Shown: positions 1,243-22,081 of the stretch, in pieces
Layout of the letters: each line of letters opens with the position of its first letter
Numbering within the stretch: position 1 is the first letter of the stretch
Source of the DNA: Candidatus Eiseniibacteriota bacterium
Lineage (GTDB): Bacteria; Eisenbacteria; RBG-16-71-46; JABDJR01
Direction: 5' to 3'
NCBI GenBank assembly: GCA_963783375.1
Contig: CAWANH010000029.1
Coordinates: 1,408,001 to 1,472,000 of the forward strand
Length of the DNA: 64,000 nucleotides
Program-made: the position numbers and the translations under genes
The notes under the pieces: generated by a model
Seen by the model: the letters and a program-made list of their open reading frames with translations, nothing else
What the model was told of the DNA's origin: nothing
The model's database searches: none

Positions 1243-2793
1243 GAGCCCGTCCGAGTAACGATCAAGAGCGGGCTCCCTCTGGTCATGCGCCGCACGGGAT
1301 TTGTTAGCACCCGGGTGTTTTCGGGTTCGCCCGTTGATCGGGCCGCCTTGGATCGCGAGGGGAGCCGCCCCTCGGAGGCGGTTCCGCCCCCTTTTAGGCC
1401 GATCCGACCGCCTTGGCCCACTTCAGGAGGTTGTGGGCCGTGCAGATCAGGTCCCACTCCCCCCGAACCTTCGCGAAGCCCCGCAGCAGGAACTGGCGGA
1501 ACCCCCGGGCTTGCTTCATCTGTCCGAACACCGGCTCCACCGTTTGTTTCCTCAACCGGTACCGGCTCCGGTGTCCCCCCTTGCGTAGCCGCGTCCGCAT
1601 CGCCGCGGTCCGGGGCCCCGGGTTCTTCTCCTTCCCGTCGGTCGGCGACGCGCTCCCGTGCTTCTGTCGTCCCGTCGCCACGTACCCCCGGATGTGCCGC
1701 CGATCCAGTTCCTTCAGGTTCTCCTCCGAGCAGTACCCCGCGTCCGCCGACACCTCCTGCGCCTGCCGACCCGTATTCTCCTCGACTTGCGTCACCAGCG
1801 GAACCAGCTCGCCGGCATCCGACGCCGACTGCGTCACCCCCCGCGCCACGATCACCTGGCTCCCCGCATCCACCGCCGCCTGCGCGTTGTACCCCTGGAT
1901 GAACCCGTCCTTCGTCTTCAGGATCCGGCTCTCCGGATCCGTGAAGTTCCGCTGCGCCCGCGCCGGAGGTTCCCCCTTCGGCGTCTTCTGAGGGCGTCCC
2001 CGGCCCCGCTTCTCCGGCTTCTCGGCCGCCTCCACCCCCGCCTGCTCCCGCGCCTCCGCCTCCAACGCCGCCTTCGCCTCCCGGATCTTCGCCAGCCGCT
2101 TCTGCTTGTTGGCGACCCACTCCGGCAGCTCGTCACCCCGCCGGTCCGGCCCGTACTCCTCATCCTCCTCCGCGTCCACCCGCCCCGCCTCCTTCAGCCA
2201 CCGCTCGATCTCCCCCCGCAGCCGCCCCTCCTCCCCCTTCATCCGACCGTAGCTCATCGCCTTGTGCTTCGACGCGTTCGCCTTCACCTTCGTCCCGTCC
2301 AGCGACACGTGCCCCAGCTGCACCAACCCCGCTTCCCGGCACAACCGCAACACCTGCACGAACAGACCTCCCAGCCCCTCCAAATGCCGCTTCCGGAAGT
2401 CGCTGATCGTCCGAAAGTCCGGCTTCTGCAGCGCCGTCACCGCCATGAAGTCCACCCGCTCCTCGCACGCCCGCGCCAACCGCCGCGAGGAGTACACCCC
2501 CTGGCAGTACCCGTACAGCAGCAGCGCCGTCATCATCACCGGGTGGTACGGCGGATACCCCCGCGCCTCGGTGTACTCCTCCAGGATCGCGGACAGATCC
2601 AGGGTCTCCCGGACCGTATCCCGCACCAGATGCGCCAGATGGCCCGGCGGCACCAGTTCATGAACCGAGGGAGGCAGCAACCACACTTGATCGACGTCCC
2701 AGGGACGGAAGGTCTTGCTCATGACCTCCAAAAACCACACCCCCACCGCCCTGTCTAGATCAAATCCGGGGGATTACTCGGACGGGCTCCTAG
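1239..2793 (-). mobile_element. IS1182-family insertion sequence
   Basis: Perfect 20-bp inverted repeat including CTAG: CTAGGAGCCCGTCCGAGTAA (1239-1258) and TTACTCGGACGGGCTCCTAG (2774-2793). Confidence 0.92.
1394..2722 (-). CDS. IS1182-family transposase
   Basis: GYPPYHPVMM, SSRRLARACE, PDFRTISDFRKRH, LDGTKVKANASKHK, NFTDPESRIL, GYNAQAAVD, ADAGY, VEPVFGQMK. Start at MSKTFRPW. Confidence 0.95.
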   Translation of the reverse strand: MSKTFRPWDVDQVWLLPPSVHELVPPGHLAHLVRDTVRETLDLSAILEEYTEARGYPPYHPVMMTALLLYGYCQGVYSSRRLARACEERVDFMAVTALQKPDFRTISDFRKRHLEGLGGLFVQVLRLCREAGLVQLGHVSLDGTKVKANASKHKAMSYGRMKGEEGRLRGEIERWLKEAGRVDAEEDEEYGPDRRGDELPEWVANKQKRLAKIREAKAALEAEAREQAGVEAAEKPEKRGRGRPQKTPKGEPPARAQRNFTDPESRILKTKDGFIQGYNAQAAVDAGSQVIVARGVTQSASDAGELVPLVTQVEENTGRQAQEVSADAGYCSEENLKELDRRHIRGYVATGRQKHGSASPTDGKEKNPGPRTAAMRTRLRKGGHRSRYRLRKQTVEPVFGQMKQARGFRQFLLRGFAKVRGEWDLICTAHNLLKWAKAVGSA

Positions 2794-3149
2794 GAGGCTC
2801 CCAGTTCCTGGAGCCGCCGGCGGGCCGAGGCCTCGTCCGGGCGCTGATTCAGAATCGCCTCGACGTTCACCACCTGGAGAACGGCGCAGACCCGCTGGGA
2901 ACAGCCGTAGATGGCCAGCCCTCCCTTCTCCTGCTGCACCCGGGTCAGGAGGCGGATCAGGATCCCCACCCCCGCGCTGCTCAGAAACTCCACCTTGGAC
3001 ATGTCCAGGAGCATGGAGGTGGCCTTCTCCCCCAGCCTCTCCGAGATGAAATCCCAGAACTGGGTCGCCCCCAGGGCGTCGAGCCGGCCCACGGGGTGAC
3101 AGTGAAGAACGGTGCTCAGATCCTTGTCCGTCTCGCACGTGATGCGCAT
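2790..3149 (-). CDS. STAS-domain anti-sigma factor antagonist
   Basis: 119 aa; GRLDA...LLDMSKVEFLSSAGVGIL with the conserved phosphorylatable Ser region. Its stop codon is part of the IS target CTAG. Confidence 0.9.
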   Translation of the reverse strand: MRITCETDKDLSTVLHCHPVGRLDALGATQFWDFISERLGEKATSMLLDMSKVEFLSSAGVGILIRLLTRVQQEKGGLAIYGCSQRVCAVLQVVNVEAILNQRPDEASARRRLQELGAS

Positions 3150-3226: not shown

Positions 3227-3240
3227 TGTGGAAATCCACA
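3227..3240. promoter_or_regulatory. Candidate upstream activator sequence for a sigma54 activator
   Basis: Perfect palindrome TGTGGA-AA-TCCACA about 80 bp upstream of a -24/-12 element. Confidence 0.5.
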
Positions 3241-3316: not shown

Positions 3317-3333
3317 TTGGAACGGACCGTGCA
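3317..3333 (+). promoter_or_regulatory. sigma54 (-24/-12) promoter of the octapeptide-repeat gene
   Basis: TTGGAACGGACCGTGCA gives GG-N10-GC, close to the consensus TGGCACG-N4-TTGCW. A sigma54 activator gene lies nearby. Confidence 0.7.
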
Positions 3334-3426
3334 AAGGTGAGGGGCCATGACGGGGCCCGGTGCGGAGCGAACCTTCTCCGGCCGGAGACGGAGGCGCAAA
3401 GACCACAATCCGAGGAGGTTCTTATC

Positions 3427-4047
3427 ATGGCTACCCGCTCGTTCAAGCGACCGCAGGCCCGACCGACCACCGCCACCACCGTGAAGATAGATGTCGCCGG
3501 CGACTTCATCGACGACATTAGCGGGTTGGCGCCCGCGGAGATCGCCAAGCTGAGTCCGAAGCAGATCGTGGCGCTCGCTCCGAAGCAGATCGCCGCCCTC
3601 GCCCCCAAGCAGGTGATGGCGCTCGCTCCGAAGCAGATCGCCGCCCTGGCGCCCAAGCAGGTGGTGGCGCTGGCCCCCAAGCAGATCGTGGCCCTGGCCC
3701 CGAAGCAGATCGCCGCCCTCGCCCCCAAGCAGGTGATGGCGCTGGCCCCGAAGCAGATCGTGGCCCTGGCTCCGAAGCAGATCGCCGCCCTCGCCCCCAA
3801 GCAGGTGCTGGCGCTGGCCCCGAAGCAGATCGTGGCCCTGGCTCCGAAGCAGATCGCCGCCCTCGCCCCCAAGCAGGTGCTGGCGCTGGCCCCGAAGCAG
3901 ATCGTGGCCATGGCCCCGAAGCAGATCGCCGCCCTGGCTCCGAAGCAGATCGCCGCCCTCGCCCCCAAGCAGGTGATGGCGCTCGCTCCGAAGCAGATCG
4001 CGGCCCTGGCGCCCAAGCAGATCGCCGCCCTCGCCCCGGTCGGCTAG
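3427..4047 (+). CDS. Octapeptide-repeat protein, 206 aa, (LAPKQ[IV][AVML]A)x20, function unknown
   Basis: Strong SD GAGGAGG before ATG 3427; in-frame 24-bp repeats with synonymous codon variation; terminator follows. Confidence 0.85.
   Translation: MATRSFKRPQARPTTATTVKIDVAGDFIDDISGLAPAEIAKLSPKQIVALAPKQIAALAPKQVMALAPKQIAALAPKQVVALAPKQIVALAPKQIAALAPKQVMALAPKQIVALAPKQIAALAPKQVLALAPKQIVALAPKQIAALAPKQVLALAPKQIVAMAPKQIAALAPKQIAALAPKQVMALAPKQIAALAPKQIAALAPVG
3550..4038 (+). repeat. 24-bp coding tandem repeat, 20 copies, with partial 72-bp higher-order period
   Basis: Unit consensus ct(c/g)gc(c/t)cc(c/g)aagcag(atc/gtg)nnngc(c/g). Confidence 0.95.
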
Positions 4048-4062
4048 AGCGCCCAAAGCCCA

Positions 4063-4105
4063 CGAAAGAGAGGGACCCCCTTCGGGAGGTCCCTCTCTTC
4101 GTTTC
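4063..4105. terminator. Intrinsic terminator between convergent genes
   Basis: GAGAGGGACCCCC-TTCG-GGAGGTCCCTCTC stem-loop followed by TTCGTTT. Confidence 0.8.
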
Positions 4106-4118
4106 GGGTTCATCCGTC

Positions 4119-5447
4119 TCAGTTCCATCGACCCCGTTCGAATGCTTCGGCCAGCCGGAGGAGATCCTCCTGGTAGGCTTGGGGCATCTTGGCGAACGCT
4201 TTCCGGAGAGCCAGGAACCGCTGGCCGGGGGTGCGGCCGCCCCCTCGCATGGCCCCGGTCGCCGCGGCCAGAAAACGCTCCAGCTTGGCCCGCACCCGAG
4301 GCTCCAACGCCCGCTCCCCCGCGACCTTCACCGCGGCGGCCTCCACGTTCCAGCGTTCCTGGGCCAGGGTACGGAACCCCTCCCCCTGGAAGTAATAGGT
4401 GAGCCCGCTCCGGGAGCAGACCGGGATCTGGCGCGGATCGTTCACCTCGCGCTGGCGGATCGTCAGCATGCGCTCGGCGAGGGCGATGTTGAAGTGGTAG
4501 CGGCGGAGCTGGGCCAGAACCCACCCCCCCACCTCGGCCGCCGGGGCCTCGGGGTCGCCGGCGGGGCTCTCCGGAGTCGGAGCGCCCGATCCGAGCATGG
4601 GTTCGGCGAGACGGTGCCGGGAGAAAACCGCCACCACGTGGCGATCCCGGATCTCCTCGCCCCCCCGGGCCTCGATGAGGAGCGCGCTCACGATGTTCTG
4701 AAGCTCCCGGACGTTGCCGGGAAAGGAATAGACCATGAGCCGCCGGAGCGCGTCGGCACGGACGACGGGCCGGGGACGTTTCCACTCCTGGGCGTGGCGA
4801 TCGAGGAAGTGGTCGATCAGGGGCGGAATGTCCTCGCGGTGCTCCCGAAGCGGGGGCAGGCGGATCGGAAAGACGTTCAGACGGTAGTAGAGGTCTTCGC
4901 GGAAGCGGCTCTGGCGCACTTCGCCCCGGAGGTCCCGGTTGGTGGCGGCCACCACCCGCGCTCCACTCCGGCGGGTTCCCTCGCCGCCCACCGGGGTGAA
5001 GGTGCCTTCCTGGAGGACGCGGAGCAGCTTCACCTGGGCGGAGAGCGTCATCTCGGCGATCTCGTCCAGGAACACCGTCCCTTCGCGGGCGCGCTCGAAG
5101 ACCCCGGCGTGGGCGCGGGAGGCGCCGGTGAAGGCGCCCGGCACGTGGCCGAAGAGTTCGCTCTCCAGGAGGGTCTCGGGGATGGCCCCGCAGTTCACCG
5201 CCTCGAACGGCGCGCGCCCGTCGCTTCCGTGCTCGTGGATGAGCCGGGCCACCAGTTCCTTGCCGGTTCCCGACTCCCCCTCGAGGAGGACCGGGGCCCG
5301 GGTCGTGGACACGCTCTCCAGATCGTCCAGCACGGCCATCATGGCCGCGCTCCGGCCCACGATGCGAACCCCTTTTCCCTTCCCGGCCCTTCGCCCGCCG
5401 CTCATCGGGTCCGCATCGGCGTGTTCGTATCCTCCCTCGGTGTGCAT
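4119..5447 (-). CDS. sigma54-dependent enhancer-binding protein lacking an N-terminal sensor domain
   Basis: Walker A GESGTGKEL, LESELFGH, GAFTGA, Walker B FLDEI, FREDLYYRLNV, FPGNVRELQN. Atypical C-terminus. Start may be ATG 5405. Confidence 0.92.
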   Translation of the reverse strand: MHTEGGYEHADADPMSGGRRAGKGKGVRIVGRSAAMMAVLDDLESVSTTRAPVLLEGESGTGKELVARLIHEHGSDGRAPFEAVNCGAIPETLLESELFGHVPGAFTGASRAHAGVFERAREGTVFLDEIAEMTLSAQVKLLRVLQEGTFTPVGGEGTRRSGARVVAATNRDLRGEVRQSRFREDLYYRLNVFPIRLPPLREHREDIPPLIDHFLDRHAQEWKRPRPVVRADALRRLMVYSFPGNVRELQNIVSALLIEARGGEEIRDRHVVAVFSRHRLAEPMLGSGAPTPESPAGDPEAPAAEVGGWVLAQLRRYHFNIALAERMLTIRQREVNDPRQIPVCSRSGLTYYFQGEGFRTLAQERWNVEAAAVKVAGERALEPRVRAKLERFLAAATGAMRGGGRTPGQRFLALRKAFAKMPQAYQEDLLRLAEAFERGRWN

Positions 5448-6918: not shown

Positions 6919-9900
6919 GTGACCAGAAAGTCCTTGCCCCTGCTCGTCCTGCCTGCCTGTTTGGCCCTCTGGTCGGCCCGGACCTTCGCCGCGCCCCCAC
7001 GCCTCCCCCCGGTCAAGGATCTCTCGACCACCGTGGCATCGCCGCCCGCCGTCCGACTGCCCGCGGGGGTGTTCTCCACCGCGGCGGTGGAGACGACCTG
7101 GTTCGGCGGCACGGTCTGGGACGCCGATTCCTCGCGCTGGGAGGCGATTCCCGGGGGAACCTGGACGTTCGACAGCGGGGTGGGTTCGAGTTACGAGCAC
7201 CCTGCCGGCTCCTGCAAGGACCCTTCGCTCCACAGTCGCATGGAGGGGTGGACGAGCGAGGACTGGAGCATCGGGGGGCCTGAAGCCCGCTTCCGTCGGC
7301 TCACCGTTGCGGACTTCGCACCCGGTATTGCCTGCGTCGGCTCGGACGCCGGTTTGGGGGGTAACGCCTCCGCCTGGGCCGGGCTCCTCCAGCCCGAGGC
7401 CGGCTCCCTCTGCTGGGTCTCCGGCCAGGGATACGGCAATTACTGGTACGTGTGCTTCGAGAAGACGTTCACCACCGATGGGAGCGGCAATGTCGCTCTG
7501 GTCTACGACTACACCAACGATACCGAACCCAACTACGACTTCAGCCGGGTCCTGGTCGATACCACGGGGGCCGGGTCGGCTCCCGATGTAGAACTCACGA
7601 CCTATACGGGGGCGGTGTCCGCGACCCACGACTCCCTGACGTTGGTCCCGGGGGCGACGCTTCCGGGTGGCCTGGGGCTCTATACCGTCAAGTTCTGCGC
7701 GACTTCCGACGGCGCCTATTCGGACGAGGACGGGTACACTCCTACGACCTGCGGCGCCTTCGCGGTGGACAACATCGCGGTCACCGGCGGCGGCGTCTCG
7801 GACGTCTCCGATTTCGAGACCGGGGACGACGGCTGGGTGGAAGTCCATCCCTGCCGGGGGCGTGGTGATTTCGCGGACATCCGGGACCTGTCCGACCTGC
7901 CGGTCATCCCGGGGTCGACCGGGTCCTGCGACCTCAGCGACTCGGTCCTGGTCTTCTTCGACCCCGCCACGGGGAGGCACCCCCTCATGCAGGACAACGT
8001 GGCGATCTCCCCCTGGATCGACCTCGCGGCGGCCGGTGTGGCCGGACAGGCCGGAAAGGTGGTCCAGACCGACTTCTACGCCGACCTTCCCCTGCAGGAC
8101 TACGTCTTCGTCGAGGTTCTGGTGCAGTGGTACCCCGACACCTGCGGCGTCACCGGCCTTCCGGAAGTCAGCCCGTTCGTCTCCGCCGGATCGGTGTACT
8201 ACTTCGGGAACACGCCCCGCTGCAGTGGACCGGGAGCCGGGCCCTTCCGGCTGGATTTCGCGCCGTTCGTCAACCCGCAGGCCATCCGGATGCGGATCGC
8301 GCTGGGAGTCTGGGAGTCCTCCTGCAACTTCATCGAATGCCGCTCCGGGGGGAACGCATCCCCCTGGTTCGACAACGTGCGGGTGGGGGTGTACGCGCCC
8401 CCGCCCGACATCCAGGACCTGATCGACGCCGCCGCTCCCGGGGACACCCTCCGGGTGCCGGCCTGGACCTACACCGGGCCGCGGAACCGCGACCTGGATT
8501 TCCGCGGCAAGAACCTGGTGCTCTTGGGCGCGGGCAAAGACGGCACGATCATCGACTGCGAGGGGCTGGGCCGGGGATTTCTGTTCCAGACCGGCGAGGA
8601 CTCCACCGCGGTTGTCCAGGGGTTCACGATCCGGAACGCCTGGGCCGGCCTGGATTCGACGGGAGCGGAGCGGAACGGGGGGGGCGCCGGGCTGTCCGGG
8701 GCATCTCCGACCTTCCGGGATTGCACGTTCGAGTCCTGCAACGCCTTCAACGGGGGCGGTATCTACGCAACGGGGGGCTCTTCCCTCAGGCTGGAATCCT
8801 GCCGTTTCGACACCCAGACCGCTTCCGAGAGAGGCGGAGGACTCTATCTCTCCGGCGCCGCCGCAACGCTACAGGAATGCTCCTTCGATTCCTGTCACGC
8901 GCAGGAAGGGGGAGGGCTCTACGGCGATATCGGTTCCTCGATCGACCTGAAGGAGTGCACCTTCAGCTCCAACACCGCCGTGCAAGATGGCGGCGGGCTC
9001 ACCGCCGGCGGCGATACGCTCCATGTCGGTGGTTGCCTGTTCCTGAACAACGTATCCGACCACGGAAGCGGTGGGGGCGGGTTTCTCTACTGCCCTTCAA
9101 CCGTCGACAGCTGCACCTTCTCGGGGAATGCGGGTATCGCTCTCTATTCCGGGTACTCCTACCAGTTGTGGAGCCCCCAGCCCGGATCCTCAATCCGGCT
9201 TCAAGGCCTTGCAGGCTCCTCGACGCTGTCCGGGGCGTACTATCCGATCGAGATAACCAGATGTGATTTCCAGGATAACTCGGGAAGCGCCGTAGCCGGG
9301 GGTGGAATCTCCATCGAGGGGTGCACCTTCGTGGGAAACACCGGTACGAACGGGGGAGCCGTAAACGCGAACTTCGTCTCGGTGATCGGATGCCTCTTCA
9401 CCGACAACACGGCCGAGAACCGGGGGGGAGCCCTCTTCGGTTTCGTGGTCGATTACGAGGACTGCACGATTAGCGGCAATCAGGCCGGTGAAGGGGGGGG
9501 GCTGTTCATCGGGAACGGGCTCGTCTCCTGGAGTCATGTGAGCGGGTGCGGCATCACCGGAAACCGGGCGACCCGGGGCGGCGGTGCGGCCTTCTGGCCG
9601 GGGGACGATCTCGTCCTATTCGATCACTGCACGATAGCCGGCAACTCCGCCCATCTGGGCGGCGGCATCTTCGTCAACGAGGCCGCGCAGCCTACGATTC
9701 AGCACTCCATCCTGGCGGTCAATTGCGCCGACAGCCTTGGACCCACGCTCTTCACAGAATCCGAGATATCCTCGGCTGACTTTGTCTGCTCCGCGGTGGA
9801 TTCCGCAGGCATCGCGGGCTCGGGCGCGGTCACCTACACCGGCCCCCAGGTGTTCACCAACCCCGTCTTCTGCGGTCCCGTGTCCTGTGAGAGCGCCCCC

Positions 9901-10302
9901 ACCACCGACGGCGATTACCGCCTCGCCGCCAACTCGCCGTGCCTGCCGGGGGCCAGCCCCTGTGACTCCCTGATCGGGGCGCTCGGCGAGGGCTGCGCCA
10001 TCGTCGGCGTGCCCGGCGGGAAACCACCGGTCGTCACCCGGCCGCTCCTGGCGGCGTTCCCCAATCCTTTCACGGGGTCGCTCCGGATCCAGTACGCGGT
10101 GCCGGGGATGGCGCCGCCGCGCCTCAGCATCTACACCATCGCGGGACGGCTGGTGCGGGAGCTTCGACCGGCGGCGACGTCAGGGATCGTCACCTGGGAC
10201 GGTCGTGATGCAGACGGCGCGGAACTCCCCGCGGGGGTCTACTTCGTGAAGATGGCGGGGCCGGCTGGCGGCAGCGTCCAGCGGGTGGTGCTCCTGCGAT
10301 AA
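6919..10302 (+). CDS. Large secreted protein: Cys-rich N-terminal domain, right-handed beta-helix (Pmp-like GGG/FxxN repeats), C-terminal FlgD-Ig-like domain
   Basis: Signal peptide; IQDLIDAAAPGDT...NRDLDFRGK; repeated NxAxxGGG motifs; FPNPF...WDGRDADGAELPAGVYF. Confidence 0.85.
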   Translation: MTRKSLPLLVLPACLALWSARTFAAPPRLPPVKDLSTTVASPPAVRLPAGVFSTAAVETTWFGGTVWDADSSRWEAIPGGTWTFDSGVGSSYEHPAGSCKDPSLHSRMEGWTSEDWSIGGPEARFRRLTVADFAPGIACVGSDAGLGGNASAWAGLLQPEAGSLCWVSGQGYGNYWYVCFEKTFTTDGSGNVALVYDYTNDTEPNYDFSRVLVDTTGAGSAPDVELTTYTGAVSATHDSLTLVPGATLPGGLGLYTVKFCATSDGAYSDEDGYTPTTCGAFAVDNIAVTGGGVSDVSDFETGDDGWVEVHPCRGRGDFADIRDLSDLPVIPGSTGSCDLSDSVLVFFDPATGRHPLMQDNVAISPWIDLAAAGVAGQAGKVVQTDFYADLPLQDYVFVEVLVQWYPDTCGVTGLPEVSPFVSAGSVYYFGNTPRCSGPGAGPFRLDFAPFVNPQAIRMRIALGVWESSCNFIECRSGGNASPWFDNVRVGVYAPPPDIQDLIDAAAPGDTLRVPAWTYTGPRNRDLDFRGKNLVLLGAGKDGTIIDCEGLGRGFLFQTGEDSTAVVQGFTIRNAWAGLDSTGAERNGGGAGLSGASPTFRDCTFESCNAFNGGGIYATGGSSLRLESCRFDTQTASERGGGLYLSGAAATLQECSFDSCHAQEGGGLYGDIGSSIDLKECTFSSNTAVQDGGGLTAGGDTLHVGGCLFLNNVSDHGSGGGGFLYCPSTVDSCTFSGNAGIALYSGYSYQLWSPQPGSSIRLQGLAGSSTLSGAYYPIEITRCDFQDNSGSAVAGGGISIEGCTFVGNTGTNGGAVNANFVSVIGCLFTDNTAENRGGALFGFVVDYEDCTISGNQAGEGGGLFIGNGLVSWSHVSGCGITGNRATRGGGAAFWPGDDLVLFDHCTIAGNSAHLGGGIFVNEAAQPTIQHSILAVNCADSLGPTLFTESEISSADFVCSAVDSAGIAGSGAVTYTGPQVFTNPVFCGPVSCESAPTTDGDYRLAANSPCLPGASPCDSLIGALGEGCAIVGVPGGKPPVVTRPLLAAFPNPFTGSLRIQYAVPGMAPPRLSIYTIAGRLVRELRPAATSGIVTWDGRDADGAELPAGVYFVKMAGPAGGSVQRVVLLR

Positions 10303-10307
10303 GGTCG

Positions 10308-10333
10308 TACAAGCCCACAGCTTGTATGTTTTT
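10308..10333 (+). terminator. Intrinsic terminator
   Basis: TACAAGC-CCACA-GCTTGTA then TGTTTTT, directly after the stop codon. Confidence 0.6.
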
Positions 10334-10447
10334 CCCCGGGTATCTCGATGTAGGATAATAACTTAAGTCCTGGCAAGCAATTGCCGGTCAACCTGGTCGA
10401 TGGTTCCCGCGCGCCTGACCTCGGAGACCACGCCCCCCCGCCAGGGT

Positions 10448-11404
10448 TCACTCGGTTTCCCCGGGTACACCCGGCTCCGCCCCCGGCTTCGCCGCCTCCC
10501 CCAGCCAATCCCGGGGGGTCAGGAACTCCTCCAGGAGCCGGGCCTCGGGCGAGCCCGGCTCGGGCTCCCAGTCGTAGCGCCAGCGCACCACCGGGGGCAT
10601 CGAGGACAGCACCGACTCGATCCGCCGACCCGACTGGAGCCCGTAGCGGGTGCCGCGGTCGTAGAGCAGGTTGAACTCCACGTAGCGGCCGCGGCGCATG
10701 AGCTGGAAGTCGCGCTCGCGCTCGCCGTAATCCATGCCCTTCCGCCGGGTCAGGATCGGGAGGTATCCGGGGAGGAACGCGTCGCCGACGCTGCGCAGGA
10801 ACTCGAAGGTGCGCTCGAACCCCCACGTGTCGAGATCGTCGAAGAAGAGCCCCCCCACGCCGCGCGCCTCCTCGCGATGGGGGAGGAAGAAGTACCGGTC
10901 GCACTCGGCCTTGAACCGGGGGTACACCTCGGCCCCGAAGGGCTCGCAGGCGGCCAGCGCGTTCCGGTGCCAGTGCACCGCGTCCTCGACGAAGCCGTAG
11001 CAGGGGGTGAGGTCGAAGCCCCCCCCGAACCACCACACGGGCTCCCGGCGCGCCATCTCGGCCACGAAGCAGCGCAGGTTCATGTGGGTGATGGGGGCGT
11101 AGGGATTTCTCGGATGGATGATCATCGAGAGCGAGACGGCCTGGAAGCCCCGCCCGGCCAGCTCGGGCCGGCGGGCGGTGGCCGCCTCGGGGAGCGCGTC
11201 GCCGACCGAGTGGGAGAAGTTGACCGCCGCCTTCTCGATCGCCCCCCCTTCGCTCAGGACCCGGGGACGGGCCAAGCCGCCGCCTGGATCCTCGTAGCGG
11301 TCCTCCCGGAAGCGTCCCCCGCCGTCCGCCCGCTCCAGCGCTCCGCAGATCGCGTCCTGGAGGGCGAGCAGGTAGTGGCGAACCCGTTCGGCGGGAGCGC
11401 TCAT
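10448..11404 (-). CDS. hemF: Oxygen-dependent coproporphyrinogen III oxidase
   Basis: [45 protein letters not shown]. Confidence 0.96.
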
Positions 11405-18969: not shown

Positions 18970-19210
18970 TCCGGGCGGCGCGCACCCCCATGATCCTTGA
19001 CCTGGGTGGGTCCTCCACCGCCGATCGTTCCGAAAGGCGGGCGCGATGAGGCGGGCGGCGCGCACCCCCATGATCCTGGGTCCGGGCAGGTCCTCGACCG
19101 CCGAACGCTCCGAAAGGCGGGCGCGGTGAGGCGGGCGGCGCGCACCCCCATGATCCTTGGTCCTGGGCGGGTCCTCGACCGCCGAACGCTCCGAAAGGCG
19201 GGCGCGGTGA
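18966..19210 (+). repeat. Three tandem 80-81 bp repeats between modB and modC
   Basis: Unit ...CGGGCGGCGCGCACCCCCATGATCCT...CCGAAAGGCGGGCGCG(A/G)TGA starting at about 18966, 19046 and 19126. Confidence 0.9.
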
Positions 19211-20262: not shown

Positions 20263-20450
20263 GGAGCGCCCGGGAGCGCGTCTCACCCAGCTCATGCAGG
20301 ACGCCGCAATGACATCGCGCGTTTGCATTGCATGAGTTCGGCTGGGTTGGGAAGACGCCGTGGTGCCGGACCGCGCCCATCGCCACTCGGGCTCATCCGG
20401 AGTTCAGGAGCGCCCGGGAGCGCGTCTCACCCAGCTCATGCAGGACGCCG
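20262..20450. repeat. 45-bp exact direct repeat (20262-20306 and 20406-20450)
   Basis: AGGAGCGCCCGGGAGCGCGTCTCACCCAGCTCATGCAGGACGCCG occurs twice; the second copy is inside the 3' end of the HNH gene. Confidence 0.9.
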
Positions 20451-22081
20451 TGGCACCCGGAGCAGAGGGTTACGAGATTCTCCGCCCGGTTCGAGCCGCC
20501 CGCGGCCCGCGGGCGCACGTGGTGCACCTCCAGAAAGCGGCTCCGTCCGCAGCCGGGCATTCGGCAGCGATGGGCGTCCCGGACCAGAACCTCCCGCCGC
20601 ACCTTGGGGGGAATCGCGGCACGGTTCTTCTCCCCCGGTTGCCGGATTCGGGCATCGCAGAGGACGGCTTCCAGCTGGTGACGGCTCACCGCCCGCTCGC
20701 CGCGGCCGGTACCAACGAACCCGCGGCCGCAGTCCTCGCACCGGCGGACGAAGACCTGGTAGGGCGGGTGGGCCGGCGCCGTCTGCCGGGCTATCCCGGA
20801 CCCTTCCGCTTTCCCCGGGTATCTACTTGTGGCGCTTGTGATTGACTGAGGTTCAACCGGAGCCGCCGGCTGGGAACCACCGGCCGTTCCTGGCAACTGG
20901 GAATCACCGGCCGGGCCGGCTGGGTGGGAATCGCCGGCCGGGCCGGCTGGGTGGGAATCGCCGGCCATTGCGACCGAGTGGGAACCACGGGCCGGGGCGG
21001 GCGGTTGGGAACCACCGGCCCTCCCGGCCCGCGGTGCGCTTTCAATCCCCCGCCGCTCACTCAGGAGCGCCTCGAGCGCGGCGAGGAGGATCTCGTTCCG
21101 GCTGCCCTTCTCGCCGGTCTTCCTGAGGGCTTCGATCAGGGCCTCGTAGCGGGCGTACTCCAGGGGGCTCAACCGATAGCCCAGGTCCACCGGGACCTCC
21201 ACGGCGGGAAAATCCACATCGGCGTCGTCCACGGGGAAAGTCTCCAGGGCTTGGGTATGCGCCGCGAGGGTTCCCGCCGGGTGGGCCTCCGTGGCCGGGG
21301 AGTCGGTTTCCGAGACCGGATCGCCAGGGATCGCCACCGGCGCACCGTTAGACCGCACGTCGCTTGACGCCAGGGCATCCACCCGCACGCCATTCGACCG
21401 CACGTCGCTTGACGCCAGGGCATCCACCCGGACGCCATTCGACCGCACGTCGCTTGACGCCAGGGCATCCACCCGCACGCCATTCGACCGCACGTCGCTT
21501 GACGCCAGGGCATCCACCCGGACGCCGTTCGACCGCACGTCGCTTGATGCCAGGGCATCCACCCGCACGCCGTTTGAGGGTACGCCGCTCGACCTGGCGC
21601 CGTTCGACCGCACGCCATCCGCCCCCTGAACCAACGCGAGCCCGCCCTGGGCCGGATTCCGCCGGCGGGCGGCCCGGGCCCGCGACCGGGTGGCGCGGAT
21701 CTTCCGCTCCAGGGCGCGCCGACTCGAACCCCTGGCCTCCCGGAGCCAGGCCGCCTCGGTCTCGGGGGTGGCCACCCGGGCCACTTCGCGGGCCGTGGTC
21801 CAGGGGACGTCCCCCGACGCGACCGACTTCCTCAACCCCGGGAGGTGCTCCAGCGCCTCGGCAAGCTTCAGGAACTGGGCGGTCTTCCCGGATGAAAATC
21901 CCAACCGCTCCCCGGCGTACTGATGGACGGACGAGTATCCGAGTTCCCGGTAGAGCTTCCGGCGGACCATCTCTCCGAACCATAGGACGGAGCGCTCTTC
22001 GGCGGCCCGGTACTCCTGCAACGCGCCGCGGAGATGCGCATCCACCTCTTCTGCTGAGAGACCGGGGCGATATTCGGCCAT
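20393..22081 (-). CDS. HNH endonuclease with helical (DUF222-like) N-terminus and repeat-expanded linker
   Basis: C-terminal VRREVLVRDAHRCRMPGC...LEVHHV...GGSNRAENLVTLCSGCH; N-terminal LYRELGYSSVHQYA; SD GGAGG before ATG 22081. Confidence 0.88.
   Translation of the reverse strand: MAEYRPGLSAEEVDAHLRGALQEYRAAEERSVLWFGEMVRRKLYRELGYSSVHQYAGERLGFSSGKTAQFLKLAEALEHLPGLRKSVASGDVPWTTAREVARVATPETEAAWLREARGSSRRALERKIRATRSRARAARRRNPAQGGLALVQGADGVRSNGARSSGVPSNGVRVDALASSDVRSNGVRVDALASSDVRSNGVRVDALASSDVRSNGVRVDALASSDVRSNGVRVDALASSDVRSNGAPVAIPGDPVSETDSPATEAHPAGTLAAHTQALETFPVDDADVDFPAVEVPVDLGYRLSPLEYARYEALIEALRKTGEKGSRNEILLAALEALLSERRGIESAPRAGRAGGSQPPAPARGSHSVAMAGDSHPAGPAGDSHPAGPAGDSQLPGTAGGSQPAAPVEPQSITSATSRYPGKAEGSGIARQTAPAHPPYQVFVRRCEDCGRGFVGTGRGERAVSRHQLEAVLCDARIRQPGEKNRAAIPPKVRREVLVRDAHRCRMPGCGRSRFLEVHHVRPRAAGGSNRAENLVTLCSGCHGVLHELGETRSRALLNSG
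20865..21020 (-). repeat. Degenerate 27-bp coding repeats (GDSHPAGPA-like), about 6 copies
   Basis: TGGGAA recurs at 20871, 20898, 20925, 20952, 20979 and 21006. Confidence 0.8.
21351..21575 (-). repeat. 45-bp coding tandem repeat x5 (NGVRVDALASSDVRS)
   Basis: GACCGCACGTCGCTTGACGCCAGGGCATCCACCCG(C/G)ACGCC(A/G)TTC units; degenerate copies continue to about 21620. Confidence 0.92.

Follow-up and report, generated by a model that had tools for sequence, protein, structure and literature searches.

The stretch of DNA analyzed here (the window; 64,000 nucleotides from a Candidatus Eiseniibacteriota bacterium, genome G000) carries a repeat gene on its forward strand at positions 3427 to 4047 (ATG 3427, TAG 4047), which encodes a 206-amino-acid protein with a net charge of +21. 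A 33-amino-acid leader (3427 to 3525, forward strand), predicted to be disordered and containing R-S-F-K-R-P at codons 4 to 9, is followed by an array of 21 in-register octapeptide units (3526 to 4029, forward strand) and the tail LAPVG. The opening unit, LAPAEIAK, is degenerate and acts as a capping unit in the layout; the 20 that follow, 18 beginning LAPKQ-, one LSPKQ-, and one MAPKQ-, all have Lys at position 4. A preliminary description of this DNA had read the open reading frame and the one-plus-20 organization in the same way, and its claim that acidic and aromatic residues are absent also holds, as D, E, F, W, and Y do not occur in the 20 units. The lack of a signal peptide was likewise confirmed; neither a signal nor a membrane segment was found in the repeat protein, whose best 19-residue hydropathy is 1.16, and the GRAVY value of the array is 0.69.

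Compared with the commonest codon for each unit position, the units show 32 synonymous and 19 nonsynonymous differences, the latter confined to positions 1, 2, 6, and 7 and consisting of hydrophobic swaps save for one Ser, much as described earlier. The 3-unit rhythm noted in the preliminary description is also real: identity between units is 0.91 at lag 3 versus 0.79 at lags 1 and 2, and the DNA tandem-repeat period across the array is 72 bp. The array is single copy in the 4.7-Mb genome. Elsewhere in the window, tandem arrays lie at 18972 to 19210 (80 bp, three copies), 20857 to 21020 (27 bp, six copies), and 21351 to 21571 (45 bp, five copies), the last two inside an open reading frame at 20393 to 22045. 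The reverse strand at 6919 to 10302 encodes a large protein in which an apparent signal peptide, parallel-beta-helix-like repeats, and a C-terminal sorting-type tail can be recognized by eye.

The expected Shine-Dalgarno sequence, GAGGAGGT, is present at 3412 to 3419 on the forward strand, 7 nt ahead of the ATG. Upstream lies a sigma-54-type -24/-12 promoter, TTGGAACGGACCGTGCA (3317 to 3333, forward strand), with two mismatches to the consensus, and 90 nt upstream of the promoter is the palindrome TGTGGAAATCCACA (3227 to 3240), a candidate activator binding site. Downstream of the stop codon, a hairpin at 4057 to 4110 has a folding energy of -36.6 kcal/mol (z -5.3; none of 200 shuffled sequences matched it), with the other strand folding about equally well, and is likely a bidirectional terminator. 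Because the repeat and activator genes converge on it, both probably use it; the strong terminator claimed for the repeat gene is there, though probably not as its own.

The repeat gene had been called stand-alone, which was wrong. It is flanked by a divergent STAS gene (2790 to 3149, reverse strand; anti-sigma-antagonist-like), found in the same position at orthologous loci, and by a convergent sigma-54 activator gene (4119 to 5447, reverse strand; 442 amino acids) with an intact GAFTGA loop. The activator lacks the N-terminal extension of ~200 amino acids seen in several orthologues. Its C-terminal domain (139 amino acids; 4119 to 4538, reverse strand), a specific marker of the cassette, has no Pfam match and looks like an insertion-bearing helix-turn-helix of the Fis type. 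Beyond the STAS gene, a trio of co-oriented adaptor genes (G000:C29:1402839-1407962) encodes a short MFP, an RRE-site-2 protease-MFP fusion (G000:C29:1403684-1405744), and a GAF-GAF-MFP, and ends 38 nt before base 1 of the window. Two insertion sequences on the reverse strand (79 to 2793), one IS630-like (about 79 to 1242) and one a DUF772/DDE transposase element (about 1313 to 2793), with ends approximated from contig breaks, lie between the STAS stop codon and the trio; the adjoining STAS and GAF-adaptor genes, whose stop codons face each other, are both unbroken. These elements were at about threefold depth in run X1, which suggests several copies.

The repeat itself is not new. The preliminary description recognized no described family, a statement overturned by a match to Pfam PF20080 (ALTTAQ repeat) at 98.1 bits against a gathering cutoff of 26.4, in eight stretches of the protein; the family is catalogued yet unstudied. 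A CSTF_C match above its cutoff in the same Pfam scan was taken as a low-complexity artifact, and an NCBIfam scan gave nothing above cutoff. PF20080 was also above cutoff in Caulobacter vibrioides, which served as a control and is a laboratory strain that would permit study of the repeat family. A full HMMER scan returned 3,023 relatives at an E value of ≤0.001, the best 150 of which are 369 to 7,821 amino acids long. A word-indexed homologue search gave no scoring match with the single repeat protein as the query and merely three ordinary ALTTAQ proteins with a seven-protein alignment; ALTTAQ clusters at 0.83 to 0.86 in an Atlas search are a lead only.

Structural evidence agrees with the short-helix solenoid that had been proposed. 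The single-sequence AlphaFold (AF2) model has a mean pLDDT of 83 (about 90 to 94 over the array, with the leader disordered) and contains 21 helices of 5 to 6 residues each, one per 8-residue unit. Among PDB sequences, the closest match was to HeliScrew4, a designed protein that has been crystallized (PDB 9ZEM; E value, 6.7e-26). In a fold search (VIA) of 48,161 chains, the top match was 7QLR (Z 7.2; rmsd, 3.8; 187 residues aligned), a Z value that falls in the range the tool describes as common for repeats; HeliScrew4 was absent from the fold-search rows. Matches to LRR proteins and mesothelin were read as periodicity only (TM-score, ≤0.41), and a viral fold search showed nothing meaningful among its top rows (TM, ≤0.28). 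According to the accessible part of a late-2025 preprint, the 8-mer alpha-helical screw is a tight superhelix with 2.5 to 4 units per turn, 7QLR is the sole natural example that it names, and the fold is called "dark matter" (10.64898/2025.12.04.691947). The AF2 model contains a short helix for every 8 residues, Pro at N1, a polar or small N-cap, and an apolar core, and the repeat protein is predicted to fold as an alpha-helical screw.

Orthologues were found via the C-terminal domain of the neighboring activator. Nine screw-type loci resulted (G000, G002, G006, G078, L041, L042, L046, L047, and L048), and record titles assign such loci to Candidatus Eisenbacteria and Krumholzibacteriia; L039 is the DNA of G002 and L040 that of G006, each counted once, and the count omits two weak profile matches (G036 and G109) as well as G046. 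The repeat gene of G002 is cut by a contig end, and the comparisons below cover eight complete proteins. Repeat number was compared across these homologues, which have 19 to 29 units and lengths of 187 to 266 amino acids. PF20080 scored above cutoff in six of the seven full-length orthologues (118.7, 86.9, 85.7, 55.4, 42.7, and 35.8), and a scan of the L048 orthologue gave no match. Loss of the frame in homologues had been named beforehand as a reason to reject the gene; the frame is kept at all eight other loci, with a Shine-Dalgarno sequence and the leader motif in all seven that have an intact 5' end, at 33 to 60% identity. Across 184 units from the eight proteins, Pro occupies position 3 in 90% and Lys or Arg occupies position 4 in 92%, which bears out the regular cationic ladder postulated earlier, and all eight keep a hydrophobic core (positions 1 and 6) and cap each end of the array with distinct units. 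Charge also sets the group apart: the eight orthologues have +0.74 to +1.0 per unit versus a median of -0.11 in other ALTTAQ-like arrays, where 1 of 137 reaches +0.5 or more (the 137 being those of the best 150 relatives with measurable arrays). The super-period comprises three units here, two in four orthologues, and six in one, and is absent from two. Since it differs among orthologues, it likely records DNA duplication rather than helical pitch, and the idea of three units per turn is unsupported. Cys is found in many units of the orthologues at L046, L047, and L133 (G078), for example, in every second unit, and once the protein is exported, a ladder of disulfides or metal-binding sites could arise from them.

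All orthologues share a layout of an N-terminal motif, a variable linker, acidic capping units, and the array. The leader motif F/I-x-[KR]-P is present in 8/8 leaders with an invariant Pro (FxxP in seven and IxxP in one), and R-S-F-K-R-P is therein a plausible candidate for an RRE recognition sequence. The accessible parts of two reports describe several RRE classes that bind W/Y/LxxP motifs (PMC12710340; PMC13381572), of which the leader FxxP would plausibly be a variant, not an identical copy. The end of the leader had been likened to a double-glycine leader. That likeness is not supported: DISG-L aligns with DVSK-L, DVSK-M, DVSR-L, DISK-L, and DINA-M, in register with the first capping unit, so that the site is not kept as GG or GA and corresponds to the N-cap and capping unit of the screw. 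What survives of the earlier suggestion of a leader-bearing multicore precursor is a leader that would be read by dedicated machinery, as the FxxP motif and the linked RRE-site-2 protease fusion indicate.

That fusion was examined further. Residues 1 to 95 are predicted to adopt the beta3-alpha3 RRE fold (AF2 pLDDT, 87), with fold matches to 6JX3 (Z 9.5), 8VPO (9.1), 5V1U (9.0), and PqqD (8.0), the top ones being leader-bound lasso B1 proteins; the Pfam PqqD model was subthreshold or absent on the fusion. HExxH and NxxPxxxxDG, which provide the zinc ligands of site-2 (M50) proteases within membrane segments, are intact in 29/29 fusions, and six membrane segments are predicted. Two protease models scored below their cutoffs, NF041824 (daptide protease) at 173.5 against 300 and NF058609 likewise. 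In the protease tree, each cargo class has one well-supported branch; the seven screw-linked fusions form a single branch (support, 100/100) that spans two families of the phylum plus a Krumholzibacteriia record. The branches track cargo class, which does not prove coevolution. The GAF-adaptors have an acidic insert in the first GAF domain in 25/25 cases (39 D/E versus 4 K/R in G000), which is a charge complement to the slot product, and one membrane segment ahead of the periplasmic part. At least 676 relatives of the RRE-protease-adaptor fusion exist, annotated solely as "putative peptide zinc metalloprotease" or "RND adaptor"; about 20 further proteases of the screw clade (P0157 to P0183) are among them. 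Among the genes scanned around the G000 and G006 loci, we found no ABC exporter gene, including the C39-peptidase type, and none of the seven TolC-like genes of the genome is linked to the cassette. Behind a short lysine-rich peptide, G029 (L035) has a second precursor-like gene and, beside it, a second, paralogous RRE-protease-adaptor (10753 to 11292 and 8037 to 10541, both reverse strand); the leader of the precursor-like gene ends in LEQRIAP, followed by Gly/Ser/Lys-rich repeats. A gene resembling a FemAB-type transferase is also present at that locus.

The cassette appears to be inherited as a block. In G006, the trio adjoins the STAS gene directly, and the outer flanks (Usp and epimerase) are the same as here. 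In two genomes of the same genus, G001 (93% complete) and G003 (98% complete), searches found none of the repeat gene, activator, and protease fusion, and the distance from Usp to the epimerase is only 1.1 kb and 3.4 kb, respectively; flanks this close indicate that the block is absent as a whole. Of the nine screw loci, six contain the full trio. At L047, the GAF-adaptor abuts the contig end, the G002 trio is on another contig, and no trio was seen within the 8.1-kb contig of L046, which starts inside the activator. In G078, all six genes are kept in a changed order. In a survey of 61 relatives, the same three genomes had both the repeat gene and the activator orthologue. Among 206 genomes of the phylum, the activator domain was found in 41 and a fusion match (E value, ≤1e-60) in 39; all 29 genomes with a fusion of ≥435 bits also have the activator domain, and the full-type fusion is absent from 12 of the 41 activator-positive genomes. 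These co-occurrence counts all describe kin, not independent cases. The G006 locus has an extra gene between the repeat gene and activator (L011 7045 to 7744, reverse strand), whose called 177-amino-acid part has no Pfam or NCBIfam match. The same activator family occurs without a nearby trio at L056, L059, L061-L062, L064-L070, L073-L076, L079-L080, L085, and L097, where one to four small convergent genes encode signal-peptide-bearing, Pro-rich-tailed proteins, often together with an arginase-like gene.

In cassettes without a screw gene, the corresponding position is a putative cargo slot. A small Lys/Arg-rich open reading frame with a Shine-Dalgarno sequence follows the GAF-adaptor in 18/18 informative nonscrew genomes, a count that leaves out G168, G087, G092, and G169, in which contigs end too early, and also G088, G164, and G203. 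The products are peptides of 42 to 45 amino acids in family f9 and 41 to 51 in f10, and a fixed leader plus repeats of 5 to 8 residues in f17; an S/T-P-K/R-G/Q-hydrophobic-A motif occurs once in the short f9 peptides and as repeats of 5 to 7 residues in f17. Leaders of the nonscrew classes are basic and different from the screw leader. Several loci have two or three tandem slot paralogues in which the leader is fixed and the tail variable. In f17, the activator is on other contigs and the peptide gene remains beside the trio. Some slot products are weakly cationic, such as that of G086 (20 K/R versus 14 D/E).

The regulatory motifs recur along with the slot. We scanned for GG-N10-GC at -24/-12, the well-known consensus of sigma-54, whose activators have the GAFTGA loop. 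With up to three mismatches allowed, a site lies within 160 nt of the ATG in 7/8 screw genes versus 25 of the 1,237 genes on contig C29, and 14/18 nonscrew slot genes have the motif at the same tolerance. A palindrome near TGCGGAAWTCCGCA (≤3 mismatches) is present at 31/40 slot promoters versus 24/1,237 background regions, a contrast that is partly circular because the motif was picked by eye from these same promoters; it is mostly 90 to 115 nt upstream of the sigma-54 site. Genome-wide, counts against the backwards control were 7 versus 0, 10 versus 3, 9 versus 2, and 9 versus 0 in four activator-positive genomes and 2 versus 0 in G001, where one site was counted on both strands. Among 21 loci read at palindrome sites of G006, G078, G204, and G001, there were no more convincing palindrome-plus-promoter pairs. 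With a promoter, an upstream palindrome, an RpoN gene in the genome, and a GAFTGA activator all present, we infer from motifs that the repeat gene is transcribed under sigma-54 control. Two palindromes also accompany a sigma-54 motif at G000:C28:1212402-1212548 (L153, about 900 to 1050), conserved in G002 (L171), ~285 nt upstream of the genes for a secreted protein and a TPR-rich 1,106-amino-acid protein, presumably CHAT-like. This second site is possibly a further activator target, and the long gap might hold a small RNA.

Taken together, these observations lead us to lean toward a model in which an ABC-less machine processes and exports the repeat protein as its dedicated cargo, a reading we hold somewhat more probable than its denial. 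Several points noted above weigh against it: FxxP is not among the RRE motifs described in those reports, the nonscrew leaders differ, no trio adjoins the screw gene in view at L046 or G002, the full-type fusion is missing from 12 activator-positive genomes, and some slot products are weakly cationic. To judge from the motifs, the -24/-12 promoter at 3317 would be opened once the neighboring sigma-54 activator occupies the palindrome at 3227. While still in the cytoplasm, the cationic chain could be held by the acidic loop in the GAF-GAF-adaptor; the RRE of the fusion would bind the FxxP leader, and the site-2 protease, whose motifs are intact, would remove the leader. The adaptors would pass the chain to a TolC-like channel encoded elsewhere. 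Since the cassette has neither an ATPase or other energizer nor a linked TolC, this export step would have no known motor. Outside the cell, the rod might act as a polycation on anionic surfaces and polymers such as cell envelopes, extracellular DNA, or matrix, which is the weakest step of the model. More tentatively, and with the odds leaning against so broad a claim, the cassette may represent an undescribed ABC-independent route for secreting polycations, controlled by sigma-54 and built from an RRE-guided site-2 protease-adaptor, an acidic-loop GAF-adaptor, and a third adaptor. Its cargo slot would be evolving freely, from 40-residue lysine-rich peptides and tandem repeats of 5 to 8 residues to the folded, capped, cationic screw of this clade.

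It is conceivable that the trio is instead a trans-envelope sensor in which the protease cuts the GAF-GAF-adaptor by regulated intramembrane proteolysis and thereby switches the activator. The repeat protein would then be a cytoplasmic polycation output, a histone-H1-like protein binding DNA, RNA, or polyphosphate and possibly feeding back on the RRE or the acidic loop. The missing transporter ATPase fits this explanation, as do the GAF, STAS, and sigma-54 activator genes, which are signaling parts, the single membrane segment before the periplasmic part of the GAF-adaptor, and the second palindrome-plus-promoter site, which precedes an unrelated operon in G000 and G002. The Lys/Arg-rich slot products also presumably resemble nucleoid and histone-H1-like proteins. 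However, tandem paralogues with a fixed leader and a variable tail look like precursors, the f17 peptide gene accompanies the trio rather than the activator, and in daptide clusters, as far as the accessible text goes, an RRE-site-2 protease removes the leader of a neighboring precursor (10.1101/2023.03.08.531785). We regard the sensor as rather unlikely, though the most serious of the alternatives to export.

Processing of the array into numerous octapeptides with a signaling or antimicrobial role would also account for the linked protease and for the recurrence of the S/T-P-K/R-G/Q-hydrophobic-A motif in the f9 and f17 peptides. We consider it improbable, because solenoid core positions 1 and 6 and both sets of capping units are kept in 8/8 orthologues, neither spacers nor cleavage motifs separate the units, no double-glycine site exists, and the screw loci have no linked modifying enzyme. 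The preliminary description also pictured a protein that binds polyanions or forms filaments, and such a protein could work autonomously in the cytoplasm, its neighborhood being merely historical. It has a regular Lys ladder and a promoter and terminator of its own to recommend it, and the exposed apolar positions 7 and 8 could permit self-association. Yet the gene is lost blockwise together with the cassette in G001 and G003, the linkage is kept across the rearranged G078 locus, and capped ends would disfavor end-to-end polymerization, to extrapolate from the cap discussion in the accessible part of the preprint (10.64898/2025.12.04.691947). Autonomous action is therefore very improbable. That the array is no gene, only a tandem DNA repeat or an assembly artifact, is hardly credible. 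The remaining frames across the repeat are likewise open, and no short-read contig spans the array. The exact number of units could be misassembled. Nevertheless, conservation across the orthologues is position specific and at the protein level, the frame and start signals persist as noted above, and a strain from another study (run X4) has sequence over the promoter and leader that differs at 14 of 665 nt.

Two unstudied things meet at this locus, the ALTTAQ repeat and the RRE-protease-adaptor cassette; the literature searched, with subscription journals and bioRxiv supplements outside its scope, yielded no paper on either. The repeat family is catalogued and its fold solved; new here are the small size, positive charge, and leader of the protein, and the main finding is its context. 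At 21 kDa and with a single domain, this screw protein is of the type that, among natural members, is simplest to produce and to solve structurally. As promoter, operator, leader motif, protease, and substrate are all defined, each step can be tested in a laboratory host. If export holds, the cassette would be a secretion route without an ABC motor; such a route would give a stand-alone helical-screw protein its first natural function and would offer a tractable substrate for the whole pathway.

Comparison with known systems places both halves of the locus. With the PF20080 family, the repeat protein shares the 8-residue register, L/I at position 1, S/T/A at 2, Q at 5, a hydrophobic residue at 6, and small residues at 7 and 8; unlike other members, the screw group is small, consists of leader and array only, is rich in Pro-Lys/Arg, and is tied to the RRE-protease cassette. 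HeliScrew4 and 7QLR have the same sequence pattern, with Pro at helix N1, a Ser/Thr/Ala N-cap, and a hydrophobic core. The repeat protein is natural, uninterrupted, capped, polycationic, and leader bearing. The designed screws serve no biological function, and 7QLR, the receptor-binding protein of phage CDHS-1, is a domain of a phage fiber.

For the machinery, the closest known counterparts are the daptide leader peptidase MpaP/DapP (NF041824) and, in addition, YydH/LiaK (NF058609), which also place an RRE N-terminal to an HExxH intramembrane metalloprotease and have small leader-bearing open reading frames nearby, often several. The cassette fusion differs in that it also carries a periplasmic adaptor and is partnered by two more. 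Judged by the accessible description of daptide clusters, the cassette has no ELExMEAP leader, C-terminal Thr, Dmp enzymes, or ABC transporter; the leader and C terminus at this locus differ, and the aminotransferase, dehydrogenase, and methyltransferase set is part of the daptide definition. Type I secretion combines an ABC transporter, an HlyD-family adaptor, and TolC, and the exporters of double-glycine bacteriocins are peptidase-containing (C39) ABC transporters that remove an N-terminal leader. The cassette shares with these systems the HlyD-family adaptors and, in the mechanism proposed here, leader removal by a protease fused to the export apparatus. In contrast to them, it has no ABC ATPase, C39 peptidase, double-glycine site, or linked TolC, and it encodes three different adaptors.
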